Shown here: positions 13,654 to 64,000 of the stretch, piece after piece | How the letters are laid out: each line of letters opens with the position of its first letter | Numbering within the stretch: the first letter of the stretch is position 1 | Translations under genes and position numbers: made by a program | Assembly: GCA_963750185.1 (NCBI GenBank) | Contig: CAVVPV010000014.1 | Location: forward strand, 128,521 to 192,520 | Direction: 5' to 3' | Length of the DNA stretch: 64,000 nt | Source: an uncultured Verrucomicrobiae bacterium | GTDB taxonomy: Bacteria > Verrucomicrobiota > Verrucomicrobiia > Chthoniobacterales > JAFAMB01 | The notes under the pieces: model-generated | The model's input: the letters and a program-made list of their open reading frames with translations, nothing else | Told to the model about the DNA's origin: nothing | Databases searched by the model: none

Positions 13654-13691
13654 GCTTCTCTTCCGGCTCCCCACGACCTGGCGGTGATCTT

Positions 13692-15067: not shown

Positions 15068-15988
15068 ATGAAAATCTGGATCAACCGAGCCGGTCAGAAT
15101 GTTGGGACGTTTACCCAGGAAGAAGTCCAACAAGGGTTGAACGACGGTCGGTTTATCGCGACCGATCTTGCTTGGCAGGATGGCATGGAGACCTGGAAAC
15201 CGCTTTCGGAATTTCCTGGAGTACAGGTTCCACCTCCGCAGCCGCCGGCAGCTGCATTCACGGAACAGGGCGCACCGTTTGCCCCACCATCGATGAATTC
15301 GCAGCAGTTGACGACTGTCACACGGGCGATGGAAGATGGGCCCTCGTGGGAGCATCGAAAAGAGCTAGGCTTTTGGAAAGCGCTCGTTGAGACCTGGAAA
15401 GAAGTCTTGTTGCGTCCGGGGACCAGTTTCCCCCTGATGAAGACCAGTGGCGGATTCAGCACGCCGATCGGGTTTAACATCGTCATGTTGGTGGTATTGG
15501 CTATCCCGACGTTCGTGTATTCGCTGTTGTGGTCTGGACTTATGGGTATGGCGGCCTCTGGAGCCTCCCCGCAGGACGAGGCTGCGACGAGGGTCGCTTT
15601 GGGGCTTGGGCCCGCTTTCACTGCGGTTTTTGTGGTTTTGATGATCCCGATCGGGATCGCGTCAACCTTCGTCAACGCCGGATTGTTTCATCTGTGTCTT
15701 TCACTTTTCAAAGGAACCTCGAAAAGCTACGAGGCCACCTATCGCGTATTATCCTATTCTTCCGGTGCCTACGTGTTCGCAGTTGTTCCGTTTGTCGGCG
15801 GCAGCGTTGCCGGAATCTGGTACCTCGTATCGACGATCATCGGCTTGTCAAAGGTGCATAAGACTGAACCCTGGCGCGCGATCGTCGGCGTTTTGCTTCC
15901 GGTAGTTCTTTGCTGCACCATTTTGTTTGGTGCATACGCCACCTTGATCGCGATCGTGATTGCCTCTCATGCGCACGCGAACACTTAG
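15068..15988 (+). CDS. GYF_2 (DUF4339) domain fused to a Yip1-family membrane domain
   Basis: MKIWINRAGQNVGTFTQEEVQQGLNDGRFIATDLAWQDGMETWKPLSEF is the GYF_2 signature. The C-terminal half has five hydrophobic helices of Yip1 type. Confidence 0.75.
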   Translation: MKIWINRAGQNVGTFTQEEVQQGLNDGRFIATDLAWQDGMETWKPLSEFPGVQVPPPQPPAAAFTEQGAPFAPPSMNSQQLTTVTRAMEDGPSWEHRKELGFWKALVETWKEVLLRPGTSFPLMKTSGGFSTPIGFNIVMLVVLAIPTFVYSLLWSGLMGMAASGASPQDEAATRVALGLGPAFTAVFVVLMIPIGIASTFVNAGLFHLCLSLFKGTSKSYEATYRVLSYSSGAYVFAVVPFVGGSVAGIWYLVSTIIGLSKVHKTEPWRAIVGVLLPVVLCCTILFGAYATLIAIVIASHAHANT

Positions 15989-16010
15989 CCGCCTTCACAC
16001 CCGGCGCACT

Positions 16011-16088
16011 GTAGCATACGCGTCCCGCGTGTATTCCGTCCCCCATACCAAACTGCAAAAATAAATACACGCGGGACGCGTATGCTAC
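16011..16088. terminator. Perfect 25-bp palindrome (REP-like, probable terminator) after the GYF-Yip1 gene
   Basis: GTAGCATACGCGTCCCGCGTGTATT (16011-16035) pairs with AATACACGCGGGACGCGTATGCTAC (16064-16088). The loop is 28 nt. Confidence 0.6.
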
Positions 16089-16095
16089 CGCACAG

Positions 16096-16659
16096 ATGAG
16101 AAGGTCACCCGTTGCAAGCAGCTTGGGAAAAATTATGCAGCGGCGAACCGCGAAAGCTTTCGGGGAGTCCCTGTCCGGCGGCCGCCGGATCGACACTCCA
16201 TACGCCTTCCCCACAGGGTCGTGGGAATCGCGGGTTAGTCGCAGGGTCGGCTTAACGTTCCGACCGCTTGCTCCGAAGGAGACCGACTTTGAGTTTCTCT
16301 TTCTGACGGTCTCGTCCGGGTTCGCTGCAAGCTGTTTTGCATGGCTGAGTCTTGGACTGCCATGGCCCGGATGCTTGTTTCGACGTTTGACCGGGGTGCC
16401 TTGCCCGACCTGCGGAGCAACACGGTGTGCCATGGCTCTCGCGCATGGGGATCTTCTCGGTGCAATGCGGCACAACCCGTTGATGTTCGTTTGTTACGGG
16501 CTGACGGTCGTCGTCAATGTATACGCTGCGGCCGTCTTACTTTTCCGGCTGCCACGGCTTCGGTTACCCAGCCTGCCAGCCAAGGTCAAACGTGCGTTGA
16601 GTATACTCGTTGTACTGGGCCTGGGTGCGAACTGGATTTATCTCATCGCGCACCGTTGA
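16096..16659 (+). CDS. DUF2752 domain membrane protein
   Basis: CLFRRLTGVPCPTCGATRCAMALAHGDLLGAMRHNPLMF is the CPxCG-containing DUF2752 core. The start is uncertain. Confidence 0.7.
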   Translation: MRRSPVASSLGKIMQRRTAKAFGESLSGGRRIDTPYAFPTGSWESRVSRRVGLTFRPLAPKETDFEFLFLTVSSGFAASCFAWLSLGLPWPGCLFRRLTGVPCPTCGATRCAMALAHGDLLGAMRHNPLMFVCYGLTVVVNVYAAAVLLFRLPRLRLPSLPAKVKRALSILVVLGLGANWIYLIAHR

Positions 16660-28256: not shown

Positions 28257-28325
28257 GCAATCCTACAATGCCCCTTTGTTTCGTTGCGTCGCCGATTACC
28301 GTCTGCTTTACTTAGAACGCACAAA

Positions 28326-31300
28326 ATGGCGGACGCTGAGCGTTATCAGCATTACGAAGTTCTTAAGCGCGGTGATGGGAGTCTATGGGAATTGGGCAGG
28401 GGAGCCATGGGGATCACCTATAAGGCTTTCGACACGAATCTTCGTTGTCCGGTTGCCTTGAAGGTCATCAATAACACCTACCTTAACAGCGACGTCGCCC
28501 GTCAGCGGTTCCTGAGAGAGGCGCGTGCCGCTGCGGCGCTTCGGCACCAGAATGTTGCGTCTGTCTTTCATTTGGGGACAGACCACGACAGCTATTTCTA
28601 CGCGATGGAGTTCATCGACGGCGAGACTGTTGATGCGTACATGAAGCGAGTCGGCGCGCTTAGCCCTCTCGAAGCCCTCGGAATAACGCTCCAGGTCTGC
28701 AGGGCGCTCACCGCCGCTGCCAGACAACAGTTGGTCCACAGGGACCTGAAGCCTGCGAACCTGATGCTGGTAGATCAGGAGGGTGAAAAGGTGGTCAAAG
28801 TCATCGATTTCGGCCTCGCCAAAAGTGCCAAGAAAGAGGGCGAAGATTCGGGTACCTTGACAGTCGGTGGCGGCTTTGTCGGCACGCCCCATTTTGCGAG
28901 TCCCGAACAGCTTGAAGAACGGGACATCGATATCCGTTCGGATATCTACTCCCTCGGGGCGACCCTCTATTACATGATCTCCGGCCGACCGCCCTTTTCT
29001 GGATCGGTGGCGCAAATCATGAGCCAGCATCTGTACAAGCCGCTTCCGTTGGAACCTCTGGAGGGTTCCCCGTCTTGTGTGGTGCAGCTGGTTCAGCGAA
29101 TGATGGAAAAGGATCGGGCGAACCGGCCGCAAACCCCAGGCGATCTGCGCCAGGAAGTCTTGCGTTGCATTGAATCGATTCAGGCAGATGCCACCGCGCT
29201 CCAGCGTTCGGTTGGCACCCTTGGAGGGGCTGCGGAATCAACTGAGACCCTCGCGCACAGCAGCGCGACAACCGATAATCGCCTGGAGTCCCAAGGCGCC
29301 GGTATGATCGCCATGCGATACAGGATCGCGCGCGATCTGGGCGACATTGCGCAAGGACATCGGTTCCTCGCCCACGACGTTCAAACCGGTCGGCAAGTTT
29401 CGATTCTTGTGTTCAATGAAAAGTTTTTATCTGATCGCAAGCGGTACACTGCGCTGGAACAGGAGATTGACCAGCTTCGGCGCACGCCGAGGCCTGAACT
29501 CCAGGAAATCTATTCTCTGGAAAGCATCGGGCAGCAAAGCTTTATCGTTCAGGAAGTCGTGACAGGGCCGGCTCTGGTCCAGGTTCTTCGGACCCGAAGC
29601 GCTCTCACGTTGCTGGAAGGTCTGCGGTTGTTGCGGTTGCTTGCGCCGGTCGCCGACCATGCGCAATCGAACCGACTACAGCAGGTCGCTTTGACGATTT
29701 CGGGCGTGCATCTGACGATGCCCGGATTAACGGCGCAGGGAGTCGACAACGCCCTCCTCCAGAAACCGTTGACGCAATGGAACCAGCTGGGGGTCAAGGT
29801 CGAACCGGTCGATTTTTCACTCTCTTCATCCGAGTTCAATTCAGCGACCTGGGCTGGATCAGCGACGCTGGTGCAGGGCTCCTCCGGCGAAGGACCCCGA
29901 GGCAGTTATCTTGGGATGCTGAGCCTACTCATTTACGAGATGCTCGGTGGTCCGCGGAACGTCGTCGAATCGACAGGGCGTTACACGCCAATCGCCGTTC
30001 TCACGGAAGAAGGGAACGCCATTCTTCGACGGGGACTTACTGACCAGCTGAGTTCGGCCGCCGAAATGAGCCGGTTGCTCGACATCCAATATCCATCACG
30101 AGCCACTGATCCGGGATTTGGACAGACCGCACCGCCACCGCCGGTGCCGCGCCCATCATTCGAAGGCGCAGCCCCGCCGTCGATAATTCCTGGCCGCGCC
30201 TCGCAGCCCAGCGCTCCACCGCCAGTGCTGCCGACTCCTCCGGTCGTGCCACCGCCGCCGCCTAAGAAGCCCGAAAAACGGAAGATGTCTCTTGCCGGGT
30301 TGCTGCTGATGGCGGCGTTAATCGTTTTGCTGATTGGCGGATTGGGCTACGCCATCTATCTCATGTTATCAGGGGCGCAAGTGGTGCAATCGGGAACCGG
30401 GCGCCCAACGCCGGTTACCCAGGAGACTCCGCGCCAGCGACCAACGATGTCGCCGACACCTGTCGAGACTCCAACCCCGATCGCTGCCACCCCGATGCCT
30501 ACGCCGACACCGGTCTCGACTCCCGAAGTGACGCCGTCGGCAGCGGCCACACCTATCCCGACCCCCACTGAGGTACCGTCCCCGCCAGCTACGCCGACTC
30601 CGGTGCTGACCCCAACCCCGACCAGCAGCGCACCGCCGGCGGATGACTTTGAAGAAAGACTCGACGAAGCGCAGGCGCTTGGCCGGTCCGGAGACTGGCA
30701 GGGCGCCATGAAAGGCTACCTTGCTTTGAGCGATCGATATCCGGAAAGATCACTGGCTCTTACTCGACTCGAGAATCTCCTTGCCGGACTTCACAGCGAA
30801 GGAAAATTGGATCCTCAAAGCTTCGCCGAGTCCAAATCCGACTTTGTTCATGCGGCCGAAAAAGGGGTCGTTCCGGCTATGCTGATTGTCGCCAAGTTCA
30901 CCCGTGAAAGCGATCCGGCGGAAGCGATGAAATGGTTCGAGCTCGCCGCCGCTAAAGGGAGCGCCCCGGCGATGGTGGAGGCCGGTTTGATGTATTCAAA
31001 TCGGCGGCAACCGGGTGACGACCACAAAGCGCTAGAGTACTTTTTGCAGGCCGCAAATACCGGGGATCGAATCGGGAAATATTTGGCCGGAGAATGCTAT
31101 TACTACGGCAAAGGCATTCCAGCCGACGTCGATAAGGCGCTTGTTTTCCTTCAGGAAGCCGCCGCACTCCAGGAACCGCGCGCAATGGATCTGCTCGGAA
31201 CGCATTTTCGGAAGGTCGGACGGTTCGATCAGGCGCGAAAATATTATGAAGAAGCCGCTGGCGAGGGATATGCGCTTTCTCTGTCGAACCTTGGCGTTCT

Positions 31301-31529
31301 TTACATGAATGGTGAGGGGGTGGCGCGCAGCCCGGAAATTGCGGCAAACCTTTTCAAGCAAGGAGCGGAGAAAGGCGATCCGAACGGAATGTTCTTCTAC
31401 GCCGGGTGTCTCGAACAAGGCCTCGGTGTCCCAAAAGATTTCAAGATGGCTGTCGAATGGTTCAAACGATCCGCGCGAGCCGGGAACCCGCGAGCCGTCG
31501 AGTGGTGCCGCACTCACGGGATTCAGTAG
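28326..31529 (+). CDS. Ser/Thr protein kinase with a degenerate second kinase-like region, one TM helix and C-terminal Sel1 repeats
   Basis: GRGAMGITYKA, VALKVI, HRDLKPANLM, DFGLA and SPEQ kinase subdomains. TM helix LAGLLLMAALIVLLIGGLGYAIYLML. PT-rich linker, then repeated Sel1-like units (GDPNGMFFYAGCLEQGLGVPKDFKMAVEWFKRSARAGNPRA). Start set to ATG 28326. Confidence 0.9.
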   Translation: MADAERYQHYEVLKRGDGSLWELGRGAMGITYKAFDTNLRCPVALKVINNTYLNSDVARQRFLREARAAAALRHQNVASVFHLGTDHDSYFYAMEFIDGETVDAYMKRVGALSPLEALGITLQVCRALTAAARQQLVHRDLKPANLMLVDQEGEKVVKVIDFGLAKSAKKEGEDSGTLTVGGGFVGTPHFASPEQLEERDIDIRSDIYSLGATLYYMISGRPPFSGSVAQIMSQHLYKPLPLEPLEGSPSCVVQLVQRMMEKDRANRPQTPGDLRQEVLRCIESIQADATALQRSVGTLGGAAESTETLAHSSATTDNRLESQGAGMIAMRYRIARDLGDIAQGHRFLAHDVQTGRQVSILVFNEKFLSDRKRYTALEQEIDQLRRTPRPELQEIYSLESIGQQSFIVQEVVTGPALVQVLRTRSALTLLEGLRLLRLLAPVADHAQSNRLQQVALTISGVHLTMPGLTAQGVDNALLQKPLTQWNQLGVKVEPVDFSLSSSEFNSATWAGSATLVQGSSGEGPRGSYLGMLSLLIYEMLGGPRNVVESTGRYTPIAVLTEEGNAILRRGLTDQLSSAAEMSRLLDIQYPSRATDPGFGQTAPPPPVPRPSFEGAAPPSIIPGRASQPSAPPPVLPTPPVVPPPPPKKPEKRKMSLAGLLLMAALIVLLIGGLGYAIYLMLSGAQVVQSGTGRPTPVTQETPRQRPTMSPTPVETPTPIAATPMPTPTPVSTPEVTPSAAATPIPTPTEVPSPPATPTPVLTPTPTSSAPPADDFEERLDEAQALGRSGDWQGAMKGYLALSDRYPERSLALTRLENLLAGLHSEGKLDPQSFAESKSDFVHAAEKGVVPAMLIVAKFTRESDPAEAMKWFELAAAKGSAPAMVEAGLMYSNRRQPGDDHKALEYFLQAANTGDRIGKYLAGECYYYGKGIPADVDKALVFLQEAAALQEPRAMDLLGTHFRKVGRFDQARKYYEEAAGEGYALSLSNLGVLYMNGEGVARSPEIAANLFKQGAEKGDPNGMFFYAGCLEQGLGVPKDFKMAVEWFKRSARAGNPRAVEWCRTHGIQ

Positions 31530-52190: not shown

Positions 52191-54383
52191 TCACGCCTGC
52201 CGTCGAATACTATTGCGAAGCCTAAGCGAGTTCGCGATCACCGATACGCTGCTTAGCGACATCGCGACGCTCGCGATCATTGGGTTCAGTAGCAGGCCGA
52301 ACATCGGGTACAAAATTCCGGCTGCAACCGGGACTCCCAGGAAATTGTAAACGAAGGCAAATACCAGGTTTTCACGGATTTTCTTCATTGTCTCACGACT
52401 TAGAAGAATCGCGGAAACAAGCAGGTTGAGGTCTCCTTTCACAAGGGTTATACCGGCGCTCTCGATAGCGACTTCCGTTCCGGTTCCCATTGCGATGCCG
52501 ACATCGGCCGTTGCTAGCGCAGGCGCGTCATTGATGCCGTCTCCCGCCATGGCGACTTTCGCGCCATTGGCTTGCAGTTTGGCGATCTCTTTCTGCTTCT
52601 GTTCAGGAGAAACTTCGGCGATGACGTCATCGATCCCCGCAGCTTCTGCGATCGATCGCGCGGTCACTTTGTTGTCTCCCGTCAGCATGACGGAACGAAT
52701 TTTCAAGTCGTGCAAACGCTTGACGGCATCCGCCGAGTTCCGTTTGAGGGTGTCGGCGATTGCGATTAATCCTGCCGGCTGGTTGTCGATCAGAACCACG
52801 ACAGCTGTCTTTCCCTCTCGACGCCAGCGATTTGCGGCTGCGCTGGAAACGTTTTCCGGCGCCTCGTCGCTCAACGATTTGCCAACGTAGACTACACGCG
52901 AATTAACCTCGGCTCTCACGCCCGAACCGACCGTTGCCTCGAAGGCGGTCGCCTTCGGCAGAGCCTGATTGCCGGCCGCGCGCACGATCGCGCGTCCGAG
53001 GGGGTGTTCACTCAACGACTCCACGGCAGCAGCCAGTTGGAGCACCTCAGACTGCGAGAAGGGCTTGAACGCTACTGTCTCGACGACCTTCGGGTTACCC
53101 TCGGTCAAGGTGCCGGTTTTATCGAATGCGACGACACTGATTTTTTCCAGTTCCTCCAGTACTGCAGCGTCCCGGACCAGGATACCGAGTTGCGCGCCGC
53201 GTCCAACACCGACCATCACCGCCATCGGCGTTGCCAGTCCAAGTGCGCACGGGCACGCGATAATCAGCACCGCAACTGCGGCACTAAACGCGAACGACAA
53301 CCGTGGTTCAGGACCGAAAAGCAGCCAAGCGGCAAATGTGATGAGAGCGACCAGCAGAACTGCCGGGACGAACCATTCCGAGACTTTGTCCGCGATTCGC
53401 TGCACGGGAGCCTGGGACCGCTGGGCCTTTGCCACCAGATCGACAATTTGCGCGAGCAACGTTTCGCCTCCGACGCGTTCTGCGCGGAAGATAAAACTGC
53501 CGGAGCCGTTGACTGTACCGCCAATGACAGTGTCGCCTGCTCTCTTTGTGACCGGCATCGGTTCACCGGTGATCATCGCTTCATTCAGGTCCGAATTGCC
53601 CTCGAGCAAAATGCCGTCAACCGGCACTCGATCACCGGGCCGCACACGAAGAATGTCGCCGGCATGAACCTGCTCGAGTGGAATCTCTTCTTCTTTGTCC
53701 GCGACGACTCGCCGGGCGGTACGCGGTGAGAGTTCCAGCAACGAGCGAATCGCCAAGCCAGTCTTTGATCGAGCGCGCAGCTCCAGGACCTGGCCCAGCA
53801 ACGCCAAAACCGTGATGACGGCAGCCGCTTCAAAATAGCTGGTTGCTGCGTGAGACGTGTGACCCGTCGCGGGCACAATCAGCTGTAGAACGCTGAACAG
53901 ATACGCGGCGGTTGTTCCGAGAGAGATCAGCGTAAACATGTTTGGTGTCCGGTTGAGTACTGATTTCCAGGCCCTTTCCAGGAAGGGCCAGCCGGCCCAG
54001 AAGTAAACGGGTGTGCTTAATGCGAATTGGATCAGAAGATTGGCTCTTTCCCCGAGGGCGCCAATCAACCGATCGAGACCCGACACCATCTCGCCCATGG
54101 CGAGGACGAGAACGGGTAGCGCCAGGATCGCTCCTATCCAGAATCGGCGCGTCATATCTTTGAGCTCGCTCTGGTCATCCGGTCCCGCTGTTGGCGCGAT
54201 TGGCTCCAGCGCCATCCCGCAGATCGGGCAGCTGCCCGGTTTGTCAGAAATGATTTCCGGATGCATTGGGCAGGTGTATTTACCTGCGCTCGCCCGCTTT
54301 GCGGGCGGATCTGCCGGCGTGCGCGCGTGCTCCGTGCAGGAATGATGTTCGCTATTGGCGTGATTTTCTAGATGAGAATGCAT
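52191..54383 (-). CDS. copA: Copper-translocating P1B-type ATPase
   Basis: N-terminal YTCPMHPEI...CPICGMAL metal-binding module, TM CPC motif ([13 protein letters not shown]), DKTGTLT, GDGINDAPAL. Confidence 0.92.
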   Translation of the reverse strand: MHSHLENHANSEHHSCTEHARTPADPPAKRASAGKYTCPMHPEIISDKPGSCPICGMALEPIAPTAGPDDQSELKDMTRRFWIGAILALPVLVLAMGEMVSGLDRLIGALGERANLLIQFALSTPVYFWAGWPFLERAWKSVLNRTPNMFTLISLGTTAAYLFSVLQLIVPATGHTSHAATSYFEAAAVITVLALLGQVLELRARSKTGLAIRSLLELSPRTARRVVADKEEEIPLEQVHAGDILRVRPGDRVPVDGILLEGNSDLNEAMITGEPMPVTKRAGDTVIGGTVNGSGSFIFRAERVGGETLLAQIVDLVAKAQRSQAPVQRIADKVSEWFVPAVLLVALITFAAWLLFGPEPRLSFAFSAAVAVLIIACPCALGLATPMAVMVGVGRGAQLGILVRDAAVLEELEKISVVAFDKTGTLTEGNPKVVETVAFKPFSQSEVLQLAAAVESLSEHPLGRAIVRAAGNQALPKATAFEATVGSGVRAEVNSRVVYVGKSLSDEAPENVSSAAANRWRREGKTAVVVLIDNQPAGLIAIADTLKRNSADAVKRLHDLKIRSVMLTGDNKVTARSIAEAAGIDDVIAEVSPEQKQKEIAKLQANGAKVAMAGDGINDAPALATADVGIAMGTGTEVAIESAGITLVKGDLNLLVSAILLSRETMKKIRENLVFAFVYNFLGVPVAAGILYPMFGLLLNPMIASVAMSLSSVSVIANSLRLRNSIRRQA

Positions 54384-54770: not shown

Positions 54771-55577
54771 CTACCTGCCAGGAGGCGCCAGCATCACGGC
54801 AGCCTCCGCCGTCAGCGGCAGGAATGTGAAGCTTTCCTGCAGGTATAATCGGACGGCGGTTTCGGTATGGCTCAGGTAGCCGATGGAGATATCCTGGCCG
54901 ATGTGCAACTCAAAGTCTCCGCCACGGGTGGTGAGCACCACGCCTCCGGCGATGGCGGGGGCCCAAACGATCTCTTCGTCGACAAGAGCCTGGATGTGCT
55001 GCAGGACCGGGTACCCGTCATCGCTGGCTCCGCCGATGGCGGTGTACGACTCCGCGCCCAGCAGGAGAGCGTAGGGGCCGTTGACCCCGGCGAGGCGCAA
55101 TTGGCTCACGGCTTGCGCCACTGCACCCGGATAGCTTTTCACGTCGGCAGGGAGCGTCAACTCCGGGTTGCTGGTTAATTGACGAATGCCCTGTATCCCC
55201 GCGGACGCGTACCCCTCAAACACGGCGCGATCCTCGGCGAAGGCGATTTTGCGCGCCGCGTCTTTCAACGGTGACCAGTCTGAATCGTTCGCACCGCGTG
55301 CCACATCGTCAATCGCCTGGCGCGCCAGTTCGAACGGAACTCGCAGTTCGACAAGGCCCTTCACTTCGCGTAGCGCGGCCTGGATCCCATCGCCCGGTGT
55401 CTCGATCTGACTCAGATGACCGGTGCCGACCGCCGAAAATTCGAGGCTTTTCGGGCCCTGCACGTCGACAACGCGCCGCGCCGCCAAGTGGCGCTTGAGG
55501 GTGCGGGACGCCTCCTCCTCGATCTGGGCCCATGCCATGTCAGAGATCGGCGCGAGTTCCCGATAAAGATTATTCAT
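54771..55577 (-). CDS. Family 1 encapsulin shell protein (linocin M18-like)
   Basis: MNNLYRELAPISDMAWAQIEEEASRTLKRHLAARRVVDV...VWAPAIAGGVVLTTRGGDFELHIGQDISIGY is collinear with characterised T=1 encapsulins such as mycobacterial Cfp29. 268 aa. Confidence 0.92.
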   Translation of the reverse strand: MNNLYRELAPISDMAWAQIEEEASRTLKRHLAARRVVDVQGPKSLEFSAVGTGHLSQIETPGDGIQAALREVKGLVELRVPFELARQAIDDVARGANDSDWSPLKDAARKIAFAEDRAVFEGYASAGIQGIRQLTSNPELTLPADVKSYPGAVAQAVSQLRLAGVNGPYALLLGAESYTAIGGASDDGYPVLQHIQALVDEEIVWAPAIAGGVVLTTRGGDFELHIGQDISIGYLSHTETAVRLYLQESFTFLPLTAEAAVMLAPPGR

Positions 55578-56658
55578 GTCCAGGCTCTCCTCTTAATGAA
55601 CCGATGCCGAGCGAACCATCAGGCCGCAGCAGTCGCGACTCGGATGCGGCCTCAGTCCCACATCCGTCCGAGGACGGGCCGGCAGGCGATGGAGCCACGT
55701 CCGCGTCCGCAACATTCTCCAGGAACGTCGCTGACGGCACAAAAAACAGCGTGCCGGTGACGGCGCGGCTGTAGTCCAGCAGCCGGTCGTAGTTGCCCGA
55801 TGGCCGACCGACGAACATGTTCACGAGCATCTGCTCGATCCTGTGCGGGGACCGGGCATAGCCGATAAAATAAGTGCCGAACTCCCCCTTTCCCGCATTG
55901 CCGAACGGCATGTTGTCACGCACAATCTCCAGCTGCTTTCCGTCTTCCACGATCGTCGTCAAAGCGTTGTGTGCTGAGGTCGGCTTCACGGCATCGTCCA
56001 ATTCGACGTCGGAGAGTTTGGTTCGACCGATGATCCGCTCTTGGGCCTCGATGGGCAGCGCGTTCCACTCCTGCAGGTCGTGCAAGTACTTCTGCACGAT
56101 CACGTAGCTCCCACCGGCAAACGCCGCGTCCTCATCGCCGATGATGGTGGCGTCGATCGCGGCTTGTTCCACGGGGTTCTCCGTCCCGTCGACAAAACCG
56201 ATTAGGTCGCGGTCATCGAAATAATTGAAGCCGTGCACTTCATCCACCGTGCAGACTGTGCCGCCGAGGCGGGACATGATCTGTGTCGCCAGTTCGAAGC
56301 ACAGATCCATACGCGTTGCGCGGATATGAAAGAGGATGTCGCCTGGCGTGGAGACGGCATGATGCCGACCGCGGATCTCGCGAAAAGTATGCAATTCTTT
56401 CGGCCGCGGCGACCCGAAGAGCCGGTCCCAAGCATCGGAGCCAAACGCCATGACACATGACAGGCAGCCGTCGAGGTCACGGAAGCCTACCGCTCGCAGG
56501 AGAGCGGCTAGGTCACCACAAAAGGCCCGCACGACGGCAGGATGTTCCGGTCCGGGCCTCACCGTCACGACAAGAAAGATAGCGGCGCGCGTGAGCTGCG
56601 CAACGACCCGCTGTGGAATAACGGATGGCACCCTCTGCTTTTCACTGACTCGGCTCAC
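55570..56658 (-). CDS. DyP-type peroxidase with C-terminal encapsulin cargo-loading peptide
   Basis: The DyP GxxDG motif (IGFVDGTENP), and a C-terminal disordered linker ending DGSLGIGSLRGE, the canonical targeting peptide. It overlaps the encapsulin start by 8 nt. Confidence 0.9.
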   Translation of the reverse strand: MSRVSEKQRVPSVIPQRVVAQLTRAAIFLVVTVRPGPEHPAVVRAFCGDLAALLRAVGFRDLDGCLSCVMAFGSDAWDRLFGSPRPKELHTFREIRGRHHAVSTPGDILFHIRATRMDLCFELATQIMSRLGGTVCTVDEVHGFNYFDDRDLIGFVDGTENPVEQAAIDATIIGDEDAAFAGGSYVIVQKYLHDLQEWNALPIEAQERIIGRTKLSDVELDDAVKPTSAHNALTTIVEDGKQLEIVRDNMPFGNAGKGEFGTYFIGYARSPHRIEQMLVNMFVGRPSGNYDRLLDYSRAVTGTLFFVPSATFLENVADADVAPSPAGPSSDGCGTEAASESRLLRPDGSLGIGSLRGEPGHE

Positions 56659-56902: not shown

Positions 56903-57331
56903 GTGACCACGCACGACGAACGCGTCCGGCAGAGCTTTTTCAAGCAGGCCTTCATGTCCACCTTGGGGGCCGAACTAACCGCAGTTGGGGAGGGCGTTGT
57001 TGAAATTCGGCTGCCATTCTCGCCGAGCCTGACACAGCAGGACGGCTACCTCCACGCCGGCGCAGTTACTGCCGTTCTGGATTCTGCTTGCGGTTACGCA
57101 GCCTTGAGTGTTGCTCCCGCCGACCATGAGGTTCTCACGGTGGAGTTCAAGGTAAACCTGCTTGCGCCCGCTGCGGGTAAGGTTTTCATCGCAAAAGCGC
57201 AAGTCAAGAGGGCGGGCAGGAAGCTGACGGTCTGCACGGCCGATGTATTTGCACTCAGAGGCGACAAGCAGAAGGTGGTTGCGACGATGCTGGCCACAAT
57301 CATGTTGGTGCCGACAACACATGCGAAATAA
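56903..57331 (+). CDS. PaaI-family hotdog thioesterase
   Basis: [19 protein letters not shown]...[21 protein letters not shown]...[11 protein letters not shown] start as in the ORF track. Confidence 0.8.
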
Positions 57332-57430
57332 CACCAAATTCAACGGGAGCAAACATGTATAGTCATTTGCGCGACGAAACACTACATTGCCGACGCGTAT
57401 CGGCAGGGTGGTTGAGCTATTCGCTCGAGT

Positions 57431-58156
57431 GGCGATCTCTTCTGCTTCCTGTTCAGGAGAAACTTCGGCGATGACGTCATCGATCCCCGCAGCTTCTGCG
57501 ATCGATCGCGCGGTCACTTTGTTGTCTCCCGTCAGCATGACGGAACGGATTTTCAAGTCGTGCAAACGCTTGACGGCATCCGCCGAGTTCCGTTTGAGGG
57601 TGTCGGCGATTGCGATTAATCCTGCCGGTTGGTTGTCGATCAGAACCACGACAGCTGTCTTTCCCTCTCGACGCCAGCGATTTGCGGCTGCGCTGGAAAC
57701 GTTTTCCGGCCCCTCGTCGCTCGACGATTTGCCAACGTAGACTACACGCGAATCAACCTCGGCTCTCACACCCGAACCGACCGTTGCCTCGAAGGCGGTC
57801 GCCTTCGGCAGAGCCTGATTGCCGGCCGCGCGCACGATCGCGCGTTCCAGGGGGTATTCACTCAACGACTCCACGGCAGCAGCCAGTTGGAGCACCTCAG
57901 ACTGCGAGAAGGGCTTGAACGCTACTGTCTCGACGACCGTCGGGTTACCCTCGGTCAAGGTGCCGGTTTTATCGAATGCGACGACACTGATTTTTTCCAG
58001 TTCCTCCAGTACTGCAGCGTCCCGGACCAGGATACCGAGTTGTGCGCCGCGTCCAACACCGACCATCACCGCCATCGGCGTTGCCAGTCCAAGTGCGCAC
58101 GGGCACGCGATAATCAGCACCGCAACTGCGGCACTAAACGCGAACGACAACCGTGG
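57431..58156 (-). pseudogene. Internal fragment of a copA paralog (CPC motif through the P-domain) lacking both ends
   Basis: Collinear with 52581-53306 at a constant offset of 4850 nt, with about a dozen substitutions (~98% identity). Similarity stops abruptly at both ends. It sits inside the chimeric ORF 56975..58300. Confidence 0.85.
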
Positions 58157-58368
58157 ACCATGTTCTTTAGCGGTGCCGTTGAGTGGCAACGAAGGTATAT
58201 TCGCATCGCGTTTTTCGGATTTTCTATCGCTTTCCGATACAAATAAAAGGGCTAAAGTTTGCACGGTACGCGTCGACAGAGAAAGCAAGCCCGGAGACAT
58301 GTTGGCGAACGCAGACGCGATCTGAATCAGACTTCCCCCTGGAAATTATACGAGTATTACAGTTCAAA

Positions 58369-59058
58369 ATGCCACTTGAGATCAAAGACCGTCAAGGATG
58401 GTCGTTAGCGCAAAAATGCATGGAATGGCGACCTGGAATGCTACAGGAATTACGAAAGCGAATAACACAGGTCCTTCGACCTTATTTGCTCCTGCGGGGA
58501 GCGACGCAGACTGAGGCAAACGATATCGTTGCCGACCTCGCATCTGACTGTGTGGCAAATTTACGGGGCGGCGGATCGCTCCTTCGGAAATACGGTGGAA
58601 GAGGTACGCTCGACGGATGGCTGCTCAAGACTGCGTTGAATCGTTTCCTTAGCCTGCGACGGACTCAAAAGTTCGAGAATAGTTACCTTGCAAACGGGTC
58701 GAAAGGAAACCCTATATCCGAGACGTTCACTCTCGCGGCTAATGAATCGCCGGAGGATGCGGTACTCTCCTTAATTCGGAATTCTCTTTTGAGGGCTTTC
58801 AGCAGGTGCTCTACGGAGGAGCGATTAATGCTGCGCTTACTATACTGCGAGGGGGTAACCCAGCGCGAACTCGGCAAGATGTGGCGATGGCCCGAGTGCA
58901 AGGTCAGTCGTCGGCTGTCGCGCGCGGTGGATTGGATCAAATCGGAAACGCTTCGCCAGATAGCATTGGAAGATCCGTCCGTCAGCATTATATGGGAAGA
59001 CTTTCTAGCCTTGGGCGACACTCTACGCCTCGACCTCGTTTGGAAACCGCGAGAATAA
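58369..59058 (+). CDS. ECF-type sigma-70 family factor
   Basis: Region-2-like EANDIVADLASDCV...LLRKYGGRGTLDGWLLKTALNRFLSLRR. Region-4 HTH ERLMLRLLYCEGVTQRELGKMWRWPECKVSRRLSRAVDWIK. The start (ATG 58369) is uncertain. Confidence 0.7.
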   Translation: MPLEIKDRQGWSLAQKCMEWRPGMLQELRKRITQVLRPYLLLRGATQTEANDIVADLASDCVANLRGGGSLLRKYGGRGTLDGWLLKTALNRFLSLRRTQKFENSYLANGSKGNPISETFTLAANESPEDAVLSLIRNSLLRAFSRCSTEERLMLRLLYCEGVTQRELGKMWRWPECKVSRRLSRAVDWIKSETLRQIALEDPSVSIIWEDFLALGDTLRLDLVWKPRE

Positions 59059-59125
59059 TCGAACTTACTCTCCAACCGCAATCTCTAATGTTCAGCGCTC
59101 TGCATTTGCAAGAGAATGCGTCCTC

Positions 59126-59506
59126 GTGGGCGCGACCAACCTGCTTAACTACATCAGGATCGGCGCGTTCAGATGTTTCGGCACGCATTTCATCATCTAT
59201 TACGGTGGTGCGCGATCTCCGCTGGTCATCTACCATCCGATTGTGACAGGCTTTCATCCCTTAGCGCTGATTTTGCTCCGCTTGGTTTACCTGCATGGGG
59301 TGAAACAGCGCGAGCTTGCTATTTCATGGCATTTTCACGAGGCGACGGTACGCCGTCTGCTGAGCCACAGTTTACAAGCCATTCGAGAGGAAGCACTTGC
59401 ATTCCTTCGGAAAAGTGGCTCGTTCGGCGAGTTGGAATGGTCCGACCTCGTGGCTATCTGCGAAGACCACGTGACTTTTTTATATCAGAACCAACCCTGG
59501 AAGTGA
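59126..59506 (+). CDS. Truncated sigma paralog (126 aa): region-2 remnant plus region-4 HTH
   Basis: LVGAT...YYGGARSPL parallels LRGAT...KYGGRGTL of the upstream sigma. LALILLRLVYLHGVKQRELAISWHFHEATVRRLLSHSLQAIRE parallels its region 4. GTG start. The stop lies 2 nt before the lysozyme ATG. Confidence 0.55.
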   Translation: MGATNLLNYIRIGAFRCFGTHFIIYYGGARSPLVIYHPIVTGFHPLALILLRLVYLHGVKQRELAISWHFHEATVRRLLSHSLQAIREEALAFLRKSGSFGELEWSDLVAICEDHVTFLYQNQPWK

Positions 59507-59508
59507 GT

Positions 59509-60327
59509 ATGGCAGACAAGAACCTCAGCGATGATGGGATCAAGAACCTCAAAGGATATGAAGGTGTCATCGACGGTCTTTACGACGATTCTTCGGGATA
59601 CTGCACGTTCGGCGTTGGGCATTTGGTCCACCCAGAGGCCAAGTGGAAGTGTTTCCTGCTCGAGGCGGCTAAAACCGATGATACCTGGAAAAAAAAGGTC
59701 CAGAACGTAGGTGGAACGTCGCTCAAGTACCTCCCAAAGGGGACGGTGAACGACGATAACTTTACCGATCTCAAGACGAACGCGATCGGCAAGGCGAAGG
59801 ACACCATAGCGCAAAAGAAGTATACCAAGGCGTTTGATAACCTTAGCAAGGAAGAGAAGGAAAAAGTGACGGCCGCCGCGGAGGACGCAGTGGCGGAGCA
59901 GGCTAAAATACTCGCGAAGCAGCCTAACGACGTATTTAAAGAAGACCTGAAGCCATATGAGAAGGCCGTTGGTAGCAACATCAAGACAAATCTTACACAA
60001 AACGAATTCGACGCCGCAGTCTCCTTGTGCTTCAACATCGGCGCCTCGGCTTTTTCCACGTCGAGCGTCGTCAAGGAGATCAATAGAGGCAAGTACAAAG
60101 AAGGTAATGCGAAAGAGCGCAAGGCAGCAATTCAGGCTATCGAAACTGCCTTCGGTTTGTGGAACAAGTCTAAGGGCTTGGTCAACGATGGACTTACGAA
60201 ACGCCGCAACGCGGAAGCAGACAGCTTTCTGGCCGAGGCACGGGCTGCACTCGCCGAGCTTGAGACGAAGGATGCCGCACCAGGCGCAAAGAAGCCCGTA
60301 GGAAAGCCACCGCCGGTGCCAAAATGA
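59509..60327 (+). CDS. GH24 (T4-type) lysozyme with a large charged insertion; no signal peptide
   Basis: IKNLKGYEGVIDGLYDDSSGYCTFGVGHLV has Glu, Asp (+9) and Thr (+6) spaced as in T4 lysozyme E11/D20/T26. The C-lobe reads LTQNEFDAAVSLCFNIGASAFSTSSVVKEINRGKY...GLTKRRNAE. Start ATG 59509 (the upstream part of ORF 59173.. overlaps the sigma paralog in another frame). Confidence 0.85.
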   Translation: MADKNLSDDGIKNLKGYEGVIDGLYDDSSGYCTFGVGHLVHPEAKWKCFLLEAAKTDDTWKKKVQNVGGTSLKYLPKGTVNDDNFTDLKTNAIGKAKDTIAQKKYTKAFDNLSKEEKEKVTAAAEDAVAEQAKILAKQPNDVFKEDLKPYEKAVGSNIKTNLTQNEFDAAVSLCFNIGASAFSTSSVVKEINRGKYKEGNAKERKAAIQAIETAFGLWNKSKGLVNDGLTKRRNAEADSFLAEARAALAELETKDAAPGAKKPVGKPPPVPK

Positions 60328-60598
60328 AGGGTGAGCCGCGACGAACGAGCATGCGCCTAAGGGCCTACAGTAGTGTGATGTGAAAAACGACGCATCTAAA
60401 ATTCGATCAAAGGTCAATGGTTCATCTTTGTCGCCCGACCCCCTCACCGCCTTTTGAGGGGGCGAACGCTAACTGGGGCGCCTGTACGTGCCGCGCAGCT
60501 AGCACCTGGTACCCACCGCCCCCACCAGCAACTGTGCCACAGGCTGGAATTCTGTTGAATTTTTTGCAAACATTCACGACGACGAGCTTTGAGATCAG

Positions 60599-61207
60599 AT
60601 GCACAGATCGAAAAATAAAAATCAGTCGAGACGAAATTTGCTTTTGCTTGTAACAGCATTTTTGGGTGTGCTGTGGCAGACAGGCGAAGGCCAAGACTTC
60701 TCCAATCTGGAAAATCCGCCCAAAATCGTGGGTCCCGGTTCGCAAACTCGTGGAATTAGACTGCCCAATTCGACCGACTCAGGTGTTACTCGTTCTTACG
60801 TACCGGAACGCGGAGTGGTGATCGTTGAAGCGGCTGATGGATCCAAGAATGAAGAACCATACGTGGTCTTGCCGATACTCTTCAAGCGGGACAGCGCGGA
60901 ACTTCTCGATGCGCGATCGAAATCGAACGTGGAAAAGTTGGCGGAGCTGCTGAAGCAACCTTCATTGGGCGATGCTCGGTTTTGCATTGAGGGGCACACG
61001 TCGTCGGAAGGTACGCGCCAACATAACATGATCCTTTCTATTCAACGCGCGCATCGGATATTCGTCCTGTTAACTGAGGCATTCAGTGTGAACAAGTTAA
61101 GCTTACGAGAGCAAGGATTTGGGCCTGACGCCCCGGAAGTTCGGCCGGAGACAACAGAACAGGACCGCGAGCGCAACCGGCGCGTCTTAGTCGTCAGGGA
61201 GCAGTAG
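60599..61207 (+). CDS. OmpA_C-like peptidoglycan-binding protein with signal peptide
   Basis: NLLLLVTAFLGVLW signal. ILFKRDSAELLD...CIEGHTSSEGTRQHNMILSIQRA...GFGPDAP...NRRVLVV is the OmpA/MotB C-terminal motif series. Confidence 0.8.
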   Translation: MHRSKNKNQSRRNLLLLVTAFLGVLWQTGEGQDFSNLENPPKIVGPGSQTRGIRLPNSTDSGVTRSYVPERGVVIVEAADGSKNEEPYVVLPILFKRDSAELLDARSKSNVEKLAELLKQPSLGDARFCIEGHTSSEGTRQHNMILSIQRAHRIFVLLTEAFSVNKLSLREQGFGPDAPEVRPETTEQDRERNRRVLVVREQ

Positions 61208-61234
61208 GTCGTAGGTCGTGACGGAAAGATAAGA

Positions 61235-61268
61235 GCGGCGCAACTCCGGAATAATTAATTTGCGCCGC
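61235..61268. terminator. Hairpin between the convergent OmpA-like and DUF4384 genes
   Basis: GCGGCGCAA (61235-61243) pairs with TTGCGCCGC (61260-61268), a 9-bp stem with an AT-rich 16-nt loop. Confidence 0.45.
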
Positions 61269-61330
61269 AACTTAAGGGTCAAATCGCCAACCGTCCAAGA
61301 CGTTGCGCCGGCCAAATTCAATCATTCAAT

Positions 61331-63586
61331 CTATGGCTCGAGCACGTAGCCAACCTGACCTTTCGCGATCTCCGCCTCGATCGGTGGGGACTCAGGCGTC
61401 CCAGCTTGGACAAGGATGACTCCGCGTTGTCCTAGCAAAGTGTTCTCGGGGTATTGCCTAAATGGCGTCTCCTGCAATGGAGTTGTTGCGTCGTCGCGAA
61501 ACTGAGAACGCGACACAAGGATGAGAAGTACTTCCGTACCGGCTGGCGTCGTCGTCGTAAAAGACAACGCCTTTTTGTTATCCGTAGATAGTCCAGGAAA
61601 CGACCGGCGTTCCCCCGCTCGTAGTTGGTTTACGTTGTTTAGCCCATTGGGAACGAGTTGCGTTTTTATGTGGTCCGCAGACAGTTGAACGATCTTTACG
61701 AAGCAATTCGTGTCCGAAGTCAGAGTAAATCCCAGGCTATCGCCCACATGATAGACTAACTTCGTCATCTCGACGGAAAGTGTGCCGCCGCCAGGAATCG
61801 GGACAACGGTTCGATCAGGTTGGTTTGCAGAATTATTCGCTGATTCGGACATTGAAGCTTCTTCATATCCCGTCGCAGCAAACGGAAGAAGGTGCAAACC
61901 GAGTTCCTGAACCACCTTCCCGAAAGCGGCCAATAATCCCTCGCGTTCTATCGGTAGACCGCTTTTAATTTTAGTTGCTAGGACGTGGAGCGCAGGATCT
62001 TCGCTCCTGTCGAGGGTTTCGAGGAGTCTCTTTTCGTCCGTCCAAAACTCGGCGCTCACTTCCTCCTCGGCGATACCGCGGGAATAGCGCTGATACAGTG
62101 CGCGGATTGGGTCTTCGCCATGATATCCAGCTTGCGCCTGTTGCATCACTTCGCGGAAACGGTTTGCATCGGTTTCTATCTCTGCCCGGATCACTTCTGC
62201 TTTCGGATAAAGCTGCTCGATGATGGCGCGGTCTTGCGTGCCGGCACGATCGAGTACCTTAGGTTTTAGCTGATCCGCGAATTTTGTAAGGCTCATTTCT
62301 GATGGCACTTCGAAGCCCTGGGAATGACAAACAATACAAGAAATGCCGCTCACTACTGTGGCGTCGTTTCGCGCGATGTGAGTCTTATCCTGGATTATAA
62401 TCGTCGGTGCAAAATCAAGACGAGTGCCGTTGGGTCCAGCGAGAAATCCCGCGACCAAGCCATTCGGCAGCTGGAAGAGAACCTCGCTGGCGTCTTGTTT
62501 GAAGGCGAGCTTTCGGTTTTGCGTCAGGCGTGCTTCAATCGGGCCGATGGGGGCGAGCGCGGGTCTGCGCCCCAGCCCCGATCCGCCGCTCTCAAAATCG
62601 TAGGTCATCCAGAAAACCCCCGGATAAGACCCGATTTGGTGGCGTTCAAGGATCCGATCGTTTCTTGAGACTTCCGACAAAGAAACCCCTGCACGGATAG
62701 CGCGACCGGCCCGGAGATTGGCGAACGAGTCCAGGCCTAGTTCGCCTTCGAGCTCTTTCTCGGTCTGCGGAAGATGGAGAATTTCATCGTAAAGCGGGGG
62801 CTGCGAAGCAGCGAACAGGAACCAATCCGCTCGTAAATACGCCTGCCTGCTCCCGGTCAAAGTGCGAATACGTTCTTCCAGCGACGGCGATGATCCAGCG
62901 ATTCCATAAGGGTTATAGTTCACTATCTTTTCCCACACTTCCGGAGTCATCTGATAGTCACGGAGATCAAACCGAAGTAGCGTGCGGGAGGGGTCGATTG
63001 TAATAGCTGGTGTGATTCGAGGAGACTGCGAAAGACAATTCAGGAGCTTCGAAATCGCCACTCTGTATTTCTCGATGTTTGCATCACTCTCCGTCGGTTT
63101 GCCGTCAATTCCGCTAACATTGTATAAATTTGCGACTGTAAGATAGCGCAAATAGGGACGACTAGTCGGGGGTTGCGATTCCAGGTCGCTTAGAATGAGC
63201 TTTAAAGTGCTTTCCAGTCCGATGAATTGCCGCTGCGACTGGCCGCTACCCGTATTCGCGCTCCATTGGTCGATCAAATTCAATTCATCTTGCGAGAACG
63301 GTTGCTGGTTCTTATCTGCCCCTGGACTACCCGCGCCCTGCGGCACGCCATCCGAATATTCTGCCGCCGACAAAACGTGGACTGAGGCGAGGGTAAATGC
63401 GGATCTCCTTGTACTGCCAGAATTAGACAGTATTATGGGACCGGACAAAACACTCCGCATTTCCGCGCCACTCATTACCCTCGGGCCTCCATCGTAAGCG
63501 AGGCAGTGTAGCTGTAATTGCCAAAAAGTAGCAATGTGCATCGCAGTCAACATGATGATTTGCCGGAAATTGCTTCCAGGTTGCAT
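61331..63586 (-). CDS. Large protein with a single CxxCH motif and a C-terminal DUF4384 domain
   Basis: Mid-protein VVSGISCIVCHSQG (CxxCH). C-terminal YHVGDSLGFTLTSDTNCFVKIVQLSADHIKTQLVPNG...LRAGERRSFP...TTTPAGTEVLLILVS fits the DUF4384 pattern. The start is uncertain among several Met codons (63586-63460). Confidence 0.65.
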   Translation of the reverse strand: MQPGSNFRQIIMLTAMHIATFWQLQLHCLAYDGGPRVMSGAEMRSVLSGPIILSNSGSTRRSAFTLASVHVLSAAEYSDGVPQGAGSPGADKNQQPFSQDELNLIDQWSANTGSGQSQRQFIGLESTLKLILSDLESQPPTSRPYLRYLTVANLYNVSGIDGKPTESDANIEKYRVAISKLLNCLSQSPRITPAITIDPSRTLLRFDLRDYQMTPEVWEKIVNYNPYGIAGSSPSLEERIRTLTGSRQAYLRADWFLFAASQPPLYDEILHLPQTEKELEGELGLDSFANLRAGRAIRAGVSLSEVSRNDRILERHQIGSYPGVFWMTYDFESGGSGLGRRPALAPIGPIEARLTQNRKLAFKQDASEVLFQLPNGLVAGFLAGPNGTRLDFAPTIIIQDKTHIARNDATVVSGISCIVCHSQGFEVPSEMSLTKFADQLKPKVLDRAGTQDRAIIEQLYPKAEVIRAEIETDANRFREVMQQAQAGYHGEDPIRALYQRYSRGIAEEEVSAEFWTDEKRLLETLDRSEDPALHVLATKIKSGLPIEREGLLAAFGKVVQELGLHLLPFAATGYEEASMSESANNSANQPDRTVVPIPGGGTLSVEMTKLVYHVGDSLGFTLTSDTNCFVKIVQLSADHIKTQLVPNGLNNVNQLRAGERRSFPGLSTDNKKALSFTTTTPAGTEVLLILVSRSQFRDDATTPLQETPFRQYPENTLLGQRGVILVQAGTPESPPIEAEIAKGQVGYVLEP

Positions 63587-63764
63587 AGGCTTTATGTTTG
63601 CTATTTTCCCAGAATTTCTCCTTAACGCCGGAGACGGGCTAACTGACCCGATTGACTAATGTGTTTTGATTCCGATGCATAGTTGAACTGCGACGGCCTC
63701 CCGCGTTTCCAGATACATTACCACGCAACTGAGTTGATGCGCGACAGACCAGGCGAACGTTCGG

Positions 63765-64000
63765 TTAGTCCTTCAAAGAAGTTATAAGGAATGGTCCCGC
63801 CAAATGCACGGCAGAAAATACGCCCTGCGCTCTTCGCAAAGTCGTCAATTCATCTCTTTGGACTTCGTACAAAGCTTCGGCCGGACTCTTGCCCGCCAGA
63901 AATGAAGCATAGAAACGCTTCATGAACTCGACCGTGTATTCATCTTGAATTTCCCATGTTGTCATCAAGAGATTGCTCGCCCCGGCGAGCGCTACACCAC
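63765..64000 (-). CDS. CHAT-domain (caspase-like) protein, C-terminal end only; continues beyond the window
   Basis: The frame is open to base 64000 (...GVALAGASNLLMTTWEIQDEYTVEFMKRFYASFLAGKSPAEALYEVQRDEL...), matching the conserved CHAT C-terminus (AGAxxxxxxxWxVxDxxTxxxMxxFYxxLxxGxSxAEAL). Confidence 0.65.
   Translation of the reverse strand, partial: GVALAGASNLLMTTWEIQDEYTVEFMKRFYASFLAGKSPAEALYEVQRDELTTLRRAQGVFSAVHLAGPFLITSLKD

Follow-up and report, generated by a model that had tools for sequence, protein, structure and literature searches.

Six genes at the end of a 64,000-nucleotide (nt) stretch of the genome of an uncultured Verrucomicrobiae bacterium (contig CAVVPV010000014.1; the whole stretch is referred to below as the window) encode an extracytoplasmic function (ECF)-like sigma factor, a truncated sigma paralogue (mini-sigma), a lysozyme, an OmpA-like protein, a 751-amino-acid (aa) protein with a CxxCH motif and a DUF4384 domain, and a CHAT-domain protease. 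An earlier note on this DNA had proposed that they form a single self-contained module. We find that the CHAT, CxxCH/DUF4384 and OmpA-like genes are conserved as a block and constitute a real, undescribed envelope module, and that the sigma, mini-sigma and lysozyme genes are absent from three related CHAT loci. Genome comparison thus splits the genes into two groups, so that they do not make up one self-contained autolysis or anti-phage system. It is probable, in our judgement, that two separate units, an envelope set and a sigma operon, are neighbours in a part of a verrucomicrobial chromosome prone to insertions; they most likely became adjacent recently and by accident, as islands were shuffled.

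All six open reading frames (ORFs) were recovered in an ORF list of the 55-64 kb region and carry, according to domain models, the domains that had been assigned to them (Table 1). The sequence was extended with a 14.3-kb Logan contig (L001), which is 99.93% identical to window positions 58127-64000 (5.9 kb) and continues 8.4 kb further. For the wider CxxCH/DUF4384 family, GTDB species representatives were scanned and 80 of 216 family loci were retrieved with their flanks; all family-wide counts given below rest on these 80. The four closest flanking genes of each locus, two per side, were compared with Pfam, and local profile searches of the family loci were run separately from this neighbour scan.

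The conserved block consists of an outer-membrane barrel, a beta-helix protein, a tetratricopeptide repeat (TPR)-CHAT protease, the CxxCH/DUF4384 protein and a convergently transcribed OmpA-like protein, and it was found on three related verrucomicrobial contigs. On the first (L002), identities to the barrel, CHAT, 751-aa and OmpA-like proteins are 69%, 64%, 52% and 58%, respectively, and the beta-helix gene is present; a JGI contig (3300047160) has the same gene order as L002. The closest species representative, a Verrucomicrobiae metagenome-assembled genome (MAG; L045), encodes CHAT, barrel, beta-helix and OmpA-like proteins with identities of 76%, 74%, 48% and 61%, together with an orthologue of the 751-aa protein (10001-11362) from which approximately 220 internal residues are missing. 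Homologues of the 751-aa protein on other contigs share 51-57% identity with it. The OmpA-like orthologues (58-61%) hold the equivalent position in L002 and L045, and synteny with the relatives ends at the OmpA gene. The slot next to this gene is occupied by the sigma, mini-sigma and lysozyme genes in the window, and by a TIR and WG-repeat pair in L002 (12941-15393, minus strand) and the JGI contig, where the TIR protein has four transmembrane segments with TIR_2 at its C-terminus, and the WG_beta_rep protein has a hydrophobic segment at its N-terminus. In L045, IS200-like, Mutator and IS66 transposase genes (12320-16506) lie immediately past OmpA. A Tlde1/YkuD-like gene (1642-2241) was also noted upstream of the module in this genome.

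The converse comparison gave a corresponding result. The closest sigma homologues (57-69% identity) neighbour genes for TIR-kinase, SIR2-TIR, nSTAND, Peptidase_S8, ABC-exporter and TPR-guanylate-cyclase proteins, with no CHAT, DUF4384 or lysozyme gene in the loci examined. The closest lysozyme homologues (54-67%) occur in varied contexts that include neither sigma, CHAT nor DUF4384, and tblastn revealed no cross-occurrence of window genes across the sigma- and lysozyme-homologue loci. A gene order joining sigma, lysozyme and CHAT that is conserved in other genomes was therefore not recovered: in the loci examined, each unit was found without the other. The sigma, mini-sigma and lysozyme genes have the appearance of a separate fragment of an island subject to shuffling, bordering on a broken copA gene.

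The envelope unit extends from window position 60599 to past 64000, with a further 6.6 kb outside the window. As had been recognized, the CHAT gene leaves the window; its continuation on L001 (5813-8683) yields a full-length 956-aa protein with a CHAT domain (E=3.5e-58) and TPRs of the kinesin-light-chain type (TPR_12/TPR_10), whose dyad motifs, HLATHG for His and LSACDT for Cys, are kept in the orthologues. Its N-terminus is strongly hydrophobic and signal-like, with only about 7 residues preceding the hydrophobic segment. When the protein was searched against PDB sequences, TPR matches alone were returned, with no CHAT match (neither DdvA nor Csx29 was reached). Two further genes lie upstream of CHAT on the same strand of L001. 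One encodes a secreted protein of 906 aa whose C-terminal part is a right-handed beta-helix; the product of the other is an outer-membrane barrel of 317 aa, which gives a borderline match to SlipAM (DUF560) over its C-terminal 75 residues only (21.4 bits vs a cut-off of 22). No cas, phage or integrase genes were found on L001.

The OmpA-like protein begins with a signal-like segment, in keeping with its proposed secretion. In OmpA and Pal, a canonical Asp/Arg pair binds diaminopimelate; the window protein keeps the Arg of this peptidoglycan-binding pair and has Ser at the Asp of the TD motif. Ser likewise occupies this position (GHTSSEG or GHASxEG) in the OmpA-like partners of L002, L045, L005, L037 and L014, and the alphaproteobacterial partner in L055 retains a canonical GYTD. 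Hydrophobic, signal-like N-termini are strong in every member of the envelope set except the 751-aa protein, in which the segment is weaker and looks degenerate. Given that the CHAT-set proteins carry export signals, they are better understood as an envelope system than as a cytoplasmic abortive-infection switch. Comparison with PADLOC-DB 2.0 gave no defence-system assignment and generic matches only (ZorB/MotB for the OmpA domain, a TPR model for the TPRs), and membership of a known defence system was rejected on this basis. The proposed abortive-infection or autolysis function is consequently not upheld, since the lysozyme is not kept with the CHAT set, the proteins are exported and no PADLOC system was identified.

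The 751-aa protein, for which the database form is 714 aa long with a later start (P0001), has the C-terminal DUF4384 domain (PF14326; residues 611-694, 48.6 bits vs a cut-off of 27) and the single CxxCH motif (C417, C420 and H421) that had been described for it. No variation was seen at these three residues among 24 sequences, and among 38 their conservation is 90% or more. Distant homologues carry one or two class I cytochrome c domains at the N-terminus, and the subfamily represented in the window has an N-terminal cytochrome c region without its CxxCH. Together with the weak signal and the internal loss in L045, the lost N-terminal CxxCH suggests decay in this subfamily. In the AlphaFold2 (AF2) model, residues 120-575 mostly have a predicted local distance difference test score (pLDDT) above 90, and DUF4384 forms a beta-sandwich. 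A Foldseek search of the whole chain against the PDB gave no match below E=1e-3, the weak matches being generic beta-sandwiches on the DUF4384 tail; as the whole chain was used, a distant domain-level match to the CxxCH core may exist. Nothing among PDB sequences matched the CxxCH core, and Csx30 was not reached by the 751-aa profile. The central CxxCH domain possibly has a new fold, and it probably binds haem.

The 216 relatives of the 751-aa protein come from Verrucomicrobiota, Planctomycetota and Alphaproteobacteria. Their commonest Pfam neighbours are OmpA (24 members), Peptidase_C14 (20), FGE-sulfatase (12) and Beta_helix/NosD (5), with ECF sigma (2 members) and CHAT (1) being rarer. Profile searches placed OmpA-like genes in at least 26 of the 80 loci, often starting less than 50 nt from the stop of the family gene, C14 caspases in 21 and CHAT in 3, so that caspase-fold proteases together account for about 24; the lysozyme-family profile had 0 matches within 10 kb of the 80 loci. 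Across the three phyla, a core trio can be recognized that is composed of the CxxCH/DUF4384 protein, an OmpA-like protein and a protease that is swapped among CHAT, C14 and S8 types.

Sigma factors also recur beside this family. A sigma-like ORF lies within 5 kb of the family gene in 13/80 loci, 12 of them upstream, where we estimate a chance expectation of roughly 7-8% for a nearby ECF sigma in these ECF-rich phyla. Because ECF sigmas are abundant and the alphaproteobacterial loci represent one lineage, the enrichment is suggestive and unproven. The sigmas adjoining family genes belong to ECF groups other than that of the window sigma. Five alphaproteobacterial loci (L055, L070, L079, L074 and L049) share the order sigma, transmembrane protein, Peptidase_S8, OmpA, family gene, 200-aa gene and convergent beta-helix gene; a separate sigma/NrsF pair was seen just upstream. 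Two further loci (L027 and L060) have the order sigma, transmembrane protein, family gene. The putative anti-sigma proteins encoded between sigma and family gene (L027, L055, L060) have a transmembrane segment and no Pfam match. In a Gemmataceae MAG (L057, 7810-11926), an ECF sigma gene is followed directly by one for a 1182-aa fusion protein comprising, in order, a Ser/Thr kinase, a transmembrane helix, a PSCyt1 cytochrome c, the central CxxCH domain and an FGE-sulfatase domain; here a transmembrane kinase encoded beside a sigma gene has the central domain of the family as its extracytoplasmic part. Sigma-led arrangements were thus seen in Alphaproteobacteria, Planctomycetota and Verrucomicrobiota.

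Sensing is the most economical role for the CxxCH domain, given that the family is frequently attached to sigma/anti-sigma pairs and in one case fused to a transmembrane kinase; a wall-anchored periplasmic module for sensing and proteolysis is therefore favoured. In such a module, the central, probably haem-binding domain would sense a redox or ligand cue, after which the protease would cleave a partner. The DUF4384 protein and the beta-helix surface protein are candidates for this partner, as is a membrane transducer. Where a lineage has an ECF sigma with its anti-sigma, or a transmembrane Ser/Thr kinase, attached to the module, the event could then be relayed to transcription. We infer each of these steps, from haem binding and sensing to cleavage and inward signalling.

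The co-conservation of barrel and beta-helix with CHAT could also be taken to mean that the genes specify a secretion and processing apparatus for the beta-helix protein, in which the barrel exports it, the clan-CD protease CHAT matures or anchors it, OmpA tethers the complex and the muramidase opens the wall. The borderline SlipAM match of the barrel is in line with this, as is the recurrence of Beta_helix/NosD proteins beside the family (as 5 downstream neighbours, and as the convergent beta-helix gene in Alphaproteobacteria). Analogues can be named for two of the components: PorU matures or anchors cargo in type IX secretion, and in holin/hydrolase-dependent (type 10-like) secretion a muramidase opens the wall locally, as an enzyme lacking a signal might do here. 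However, the lysozyme is not conserved with the envelope set, most family loci have protease and OmpA genes and no barrel or beta-helix gene, the CxxCH domain is left without a role, and the sigma and kinase fusions favour signalling over secretion. We therefore regard a secretion apparatus as quite improbable.

The second unit is a three-gene operon (58369-60327) led by the sigma gene. Homologue N-termini agree with an ATG at 58369, and the ECF-like character proposed for the product is borne out by TIGR02937 (NCBIfam; 45.2 bits vs a cut-off of 42.9, residues 43-193). Its best NCBIfam match is TIGR03001 (Myxococcales sigma family 1), at 52.2 bits vs a cut-off of 154.6, and Pfam recognizes region 4 alone, below threshold. 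The sigma family comprises 84 clusters at 50% identity (E<=1e-30). TIGR03001 was the top match for 41/41 members scanned, all of which, judging from their E-values (best 2.1e-28), would fall below its cut-off. A search against PDB sequences gave no ECF sigma match at E<=0.01 (DdvS was not reached), and the family is absent from viral contigs in IMG/VR. In the alignment to its sigma family, the mini-sigma covers only region 4 and the short C-terminal tail, with no region 2, which makes the label fair and agrees with its description as a truncated sigma paralogue; its tblastn matches to relatives are at about 1e-10. Four other members of the sigma family (P0217, P0269, P0274 and P0275; 113-149 aa) likewise have the sigma-4 end only and are either contig-end fragments or real genes.

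The sigma may transcribe its own operon, in which case the muramidase would be made only when the sigma is active. The sigma gene is preceded by a promoter-like motif, TAAAGTTT-N13-CGAC, which recurs with equal spacing ahead of a 65%-identical sigma in L008/L095 (L008 2748); it is missing upstream of the L096 sigma. A copy with 2 mismatches stands at 60556-60580, 19 nt before the OmpA ATG, and the window-wide count of the motif is at chance level. A metagenome scan with the sigma alignment gave 3 loci, one of them a duplicate of L008, too few to define an autoregulatory promoter. Being common to two sigma loci only, and at chance level in the window, the motif was rejected as regulon evidence. 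A consensus promoter and terminator scan of the region was uninformative.

Two bases separate the mini-sigma stop from the lysozyme start (TGAgtATG). No N-terminal hydrophobic segment was detected in the lysozyme, in agreement with the claim that it lacks an export signal. Its catalytic triad (E18/D27/T33) is invariant in 32 homologues, and its AF2 model (mean pLDDT 90.7) shows a P22/lambda-type GH24 fold with an inserted helical hairpin of approximately 90 aa; the best Foldseek match was 6et6 (E=8.5e-8, target-normalised TM-score 0.81), and 9kbs and 2anv were also matched. No relatives of the family, which numbers 72 homologues, were found in IMG/VR, and phage and plasmid collections contained no full-length relatives, the phage matches covering only residues 134-234, in the C-lobe, at about 40% identity. 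A prophage lysis cassette was rejected, there being no holin, spanin, capsid or integrase in the tail or the 8.4-kb extension and no full-length phage relatives of the lysozyme.

One 54%-identical homologue (P0065; L099, 695-2013) is overlapped by 4 nt by a gene of the LprI (lysozyme-inhibitor) family, and the two look like an enzyme/inhibitor or effector/immunity pair. The muramidase might on this account serve as an antibacterial effector or, paired with an inhibitor of its own, in wall remodelling. It would be carried in variable conflict islands with the sigma as island regulator, both being unrelated to the envelope set. The direct succession of P0065 and the LprI-family gene, the presence of sigma and lysozyme homologues among TIR-kinase, TPR-guanylate-cyclase, SIR2-TIR and nSTAND genes, and the lack of full-length phage relatives are all compatible with such a function. 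Nevertheless, the LprI pairing occurs in one homologue only, the window lysozyme is not followed by anything resembling an inhibitor gene, and neither a secretion system nor a delivery domain is evident, so that we consider this function very doubtful.

The strongest competitor to separate units, a modified form of the model in the earlier note, holds that the sigma-lysozyme operon is the output arm, in this strain, of a periplasmic CHAT/DUF4384/OmpA sensor, such that envelope damage or phage attack would activate the protease, the protease the sigma and the sigma autolysis, with TIR taking the place of the lysozyme in relatives. The units are adjacent and converge on the OmpA gene, the presence of lysozyme here and of transmembrane TIR proteins in the L002 and JGI slot resembles effector swapping, control of ECF sigmas by TPR-CHAT proteins has precedents in DdvA-DdvS (PMC11506125) and Csx29-Csx30-RpoE (bioRxiv 10.1101/2022.08.17.504292), ECF sigmas recur upstream of CxxCH/DUF4384-family members, and the motif seen upstream of the sigma gene has a weak copy immediately ahead of the OmpA start codon. 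However, the locus encodes no anti-sigma domain, transmembrane transducer or kinase (Pfam and hydrophobicity analysis of 58369-61207 revealed neither an anti-sigma domain nor a transmembrane protein), and CHAT has no more than about 7 residues ahead of its hydrophobic segment. Moreover, sigma and lysozyme are absent from related CHAT loci, CHAT and DUF4384 from the sigma- and lysozyme-homologue loci examined, the L045 slot is filled by insertion sequence (IS) elements, and neither the motif count nor PADLOC adds support. We consider the output arm unlikely. The link to the sigma that had been suggested is plausible, insofar as unrelated ECF sigmas stand upstream of family members, and falters in that no anti-sigma or kinase joins the periplasmic proteins to the sigma. 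A still broader scheme, for which we see little probability, is a periplasmic caspase-like surveillance system with a new-fold haem sensor and an exchangeable cytoplasmic output arm, which would be an orphan sigma driving muramidase autolysis here and TIR, a sigma/anti-sigma pair or a kinase elsewhere.

Several points weigh against treating the two units as separate and the first as an envelope module. The close comparators for the five-gene block number three, two of which are near-duplicates, and the homologue contigs inspected number three for the sigma and two for the lysozyme; as many of these contigs are short and the look-ups few, a rare combination of sigma, lysozyme and CHAT may occur elsewhere. 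The recurrence of ECF sigmas beside the family means that the window sigma could be a true partner. The signal peptide of the 751-aa protein is weak, and we infer where the proteins are located, what the protease cleaves and that haem is bound.

The nearest mechanistic relatives of the locus are DdvA-DdvS and craspase-Csx30-RpoE, and membership of either fails on defining features. In Myxococcus xanthus, DdvA is a transmembrane anti-sigma with a periplasmic TPR-CHAT domain and DdvS its ECF sigma (PMC11506125, PMC6061681). The window resembles this pair in its periplasmic TPR-CHAT protein with a His-Cys dyad and in the nearby ECF-type sigma, which is nearest to the Myxococcales TIGR03001. Unlike DdvA, the window CHAT has no cytoplasmic zinc anti-sigma domain followed by a transmembrane helix and only a signal-like N-terminus, and unlike that of DdvS, the window sigma gene lies 4.7 kb from CHAT on the other strand and is not conserved with it. 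Type III-E craspase loci encode Csx29 (TPR-CHAT), Csx30, Csx31 and RpoE (bioRxiv 10.1101/2022.08.17.504292; PMC10028731), and some Csx30 C-terminal domains are DUF4384 (bioRxiv 10.1101/2022.08.17.504292). A TPR-CHAT protease, a DUF4384-bearing protein and an ECF sigma thus share one neighbourhood in both cases, whereas craspase is cytoplasmic and RNA-guided, and the window locus has no Cas7-11 or CRISPR array and an exported CHAT; Csx30 furthermore has no CxxCH domain, which is the core of the 751-aa protein.

Other known systems show more partial likeness. The window sigma shares with ECFs controlled by Ser/Thr kinases (ECF43 etc.; PMC7826278, PMC8999054) the lack of an adjacent anti-sigma, one sigma homologue lies near a TIR-kinase gene and L057 contains the kinase fusion, whereas the window sigma operon has no kinase. 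The lysozyme has the fold and E-D-T triad of P22/lambda-type GH24 endolysins and of the SpmX muramidase domain, and differs from the endolysins in its helical insertion and Pro-rich tail and in being without a holin or spanin. Orthocaspase and metacaspase architectures (PMC7475262, PMC8283722) also associate a caspase-fold protease with DUF4384 and FGE-sulfatase; in the present case the domains are found on individual exported proteins, alongside an OmpA-like partner and a CxxCH domain that is conserved. In the literature naming DUF4384, as far as a full-text search made it accessible, no description of an exported arrangement of CxxCH/DUF4384, OmpA and protease was evident.

Caspase-like proteases that control ECF sigmas have been characterised only recently (DdvA and craspase), and the function of DUF4384 is still uncharacterised. 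The locus opens a family in which a CxxCH domain unmatched in the PDB is combined with an OmpA-like anchor and an exported protease (caspase, CHAT or subtilisin), often with a sigma or kinase. If the CxxCH domain is a sensor, it would offer Planctomycetes-Verrucomicrobia-Chlamydiae (PVC) bacteria and Alphaproteobacteria a new route to read the state of their envelope, and DUF4384 would gain a context. Separation of the core from its accidental neighbours also keeps an adjacency-based lysozyme 'autolysis system' out of annotation.

Table 1. Positions of the features at the end of the window
Feature	Position	Strand	Remark
Candidate promoter-like motif TAAAGTTT-N13-CGAC	58253..58277	+	Upstream of sigma gene, lead only
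Divergent ECF-type sigma, 229 aa, TIGR03001-like family	58369..59058	+	TIGR02937 above cut-off
Mini-sigma (sigma-4-only paralogue), 126 aa	59126..59506	+	Alignment to sigma family
Signal-less GH24 muramidase, 272 aa, Pro-rich tail	59509..60327	+	Phage_lysozyme Pfam E=8.6e-26
Secreted OmpA_C-like peptidoglycan-binding protein	60599..61207	+	Pfam OmpA 55.4 bits vs cut-off 27.2
751-aa envelope protein: degenerate cytochrome-c-like N-terminus, ~450-aa CxxCH centre, DUF4384 beta-sandwich	61331..63586	-	
C-terminal 77 codons of 956-aa secreted TPR-CHAT protease	63765..64000 and beyond	-	CHAT E=5.7e-11
Truncated copA-like P-type ATPase fragment	57400..58300 (lower bound approximate)	-	Left edge of variable segment

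The surroundings of the two units were also surveyed. The GC content of the tail is lower than that of the rest of the window (52.5% vs 55.5%), as its reported AT-richness would imply, although the difference is slight and the 10-16 kb part of the window is lower still. The copA-like fragment reported beside the cluster is real and truncated at both ends (ORF list and Pfam), its ORF (56975-58300) retaining just the final ~40 positions of E1-E2_ATPase and part of a HAD hydrolase domain. A search for the marks of an integrated element (tRNA, Rfam families, flanking repeats) came up empty, and the absence of holin, spanin, capsid and integrase genes, which had been remarked upon for the tail, extends to the 8.4-kb L001 extension. 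An intact paralogue of the broken gene, encoding a heavy-metal P-type ATPase with an HMBD domain (52191-54383, minus strand), lies 3 kb from the fragment, and a 4HBT thioesterase gene on the opposite strand (56903-57331) is overlapped by the 3' tail of the fragment ORF. The kinase nearest to the orphan sigma is a 1081-aa Ser/Thr kinase with Sel1 repeats (28284-31529, plus strand), 27 kb away. Elsewhere in the window, a 706-aa ORF (6140-8260, minus strand) has no Pfam match at E<=1e-5, and genes for a DyP-type peroxidase and, immediately after it, an encapsulin (Linocin_M18) shell protein lie at 54771-56658 (minus strand); a DyP peroxidase and an encapsulin shell are a classic encapsulin cargo pair.

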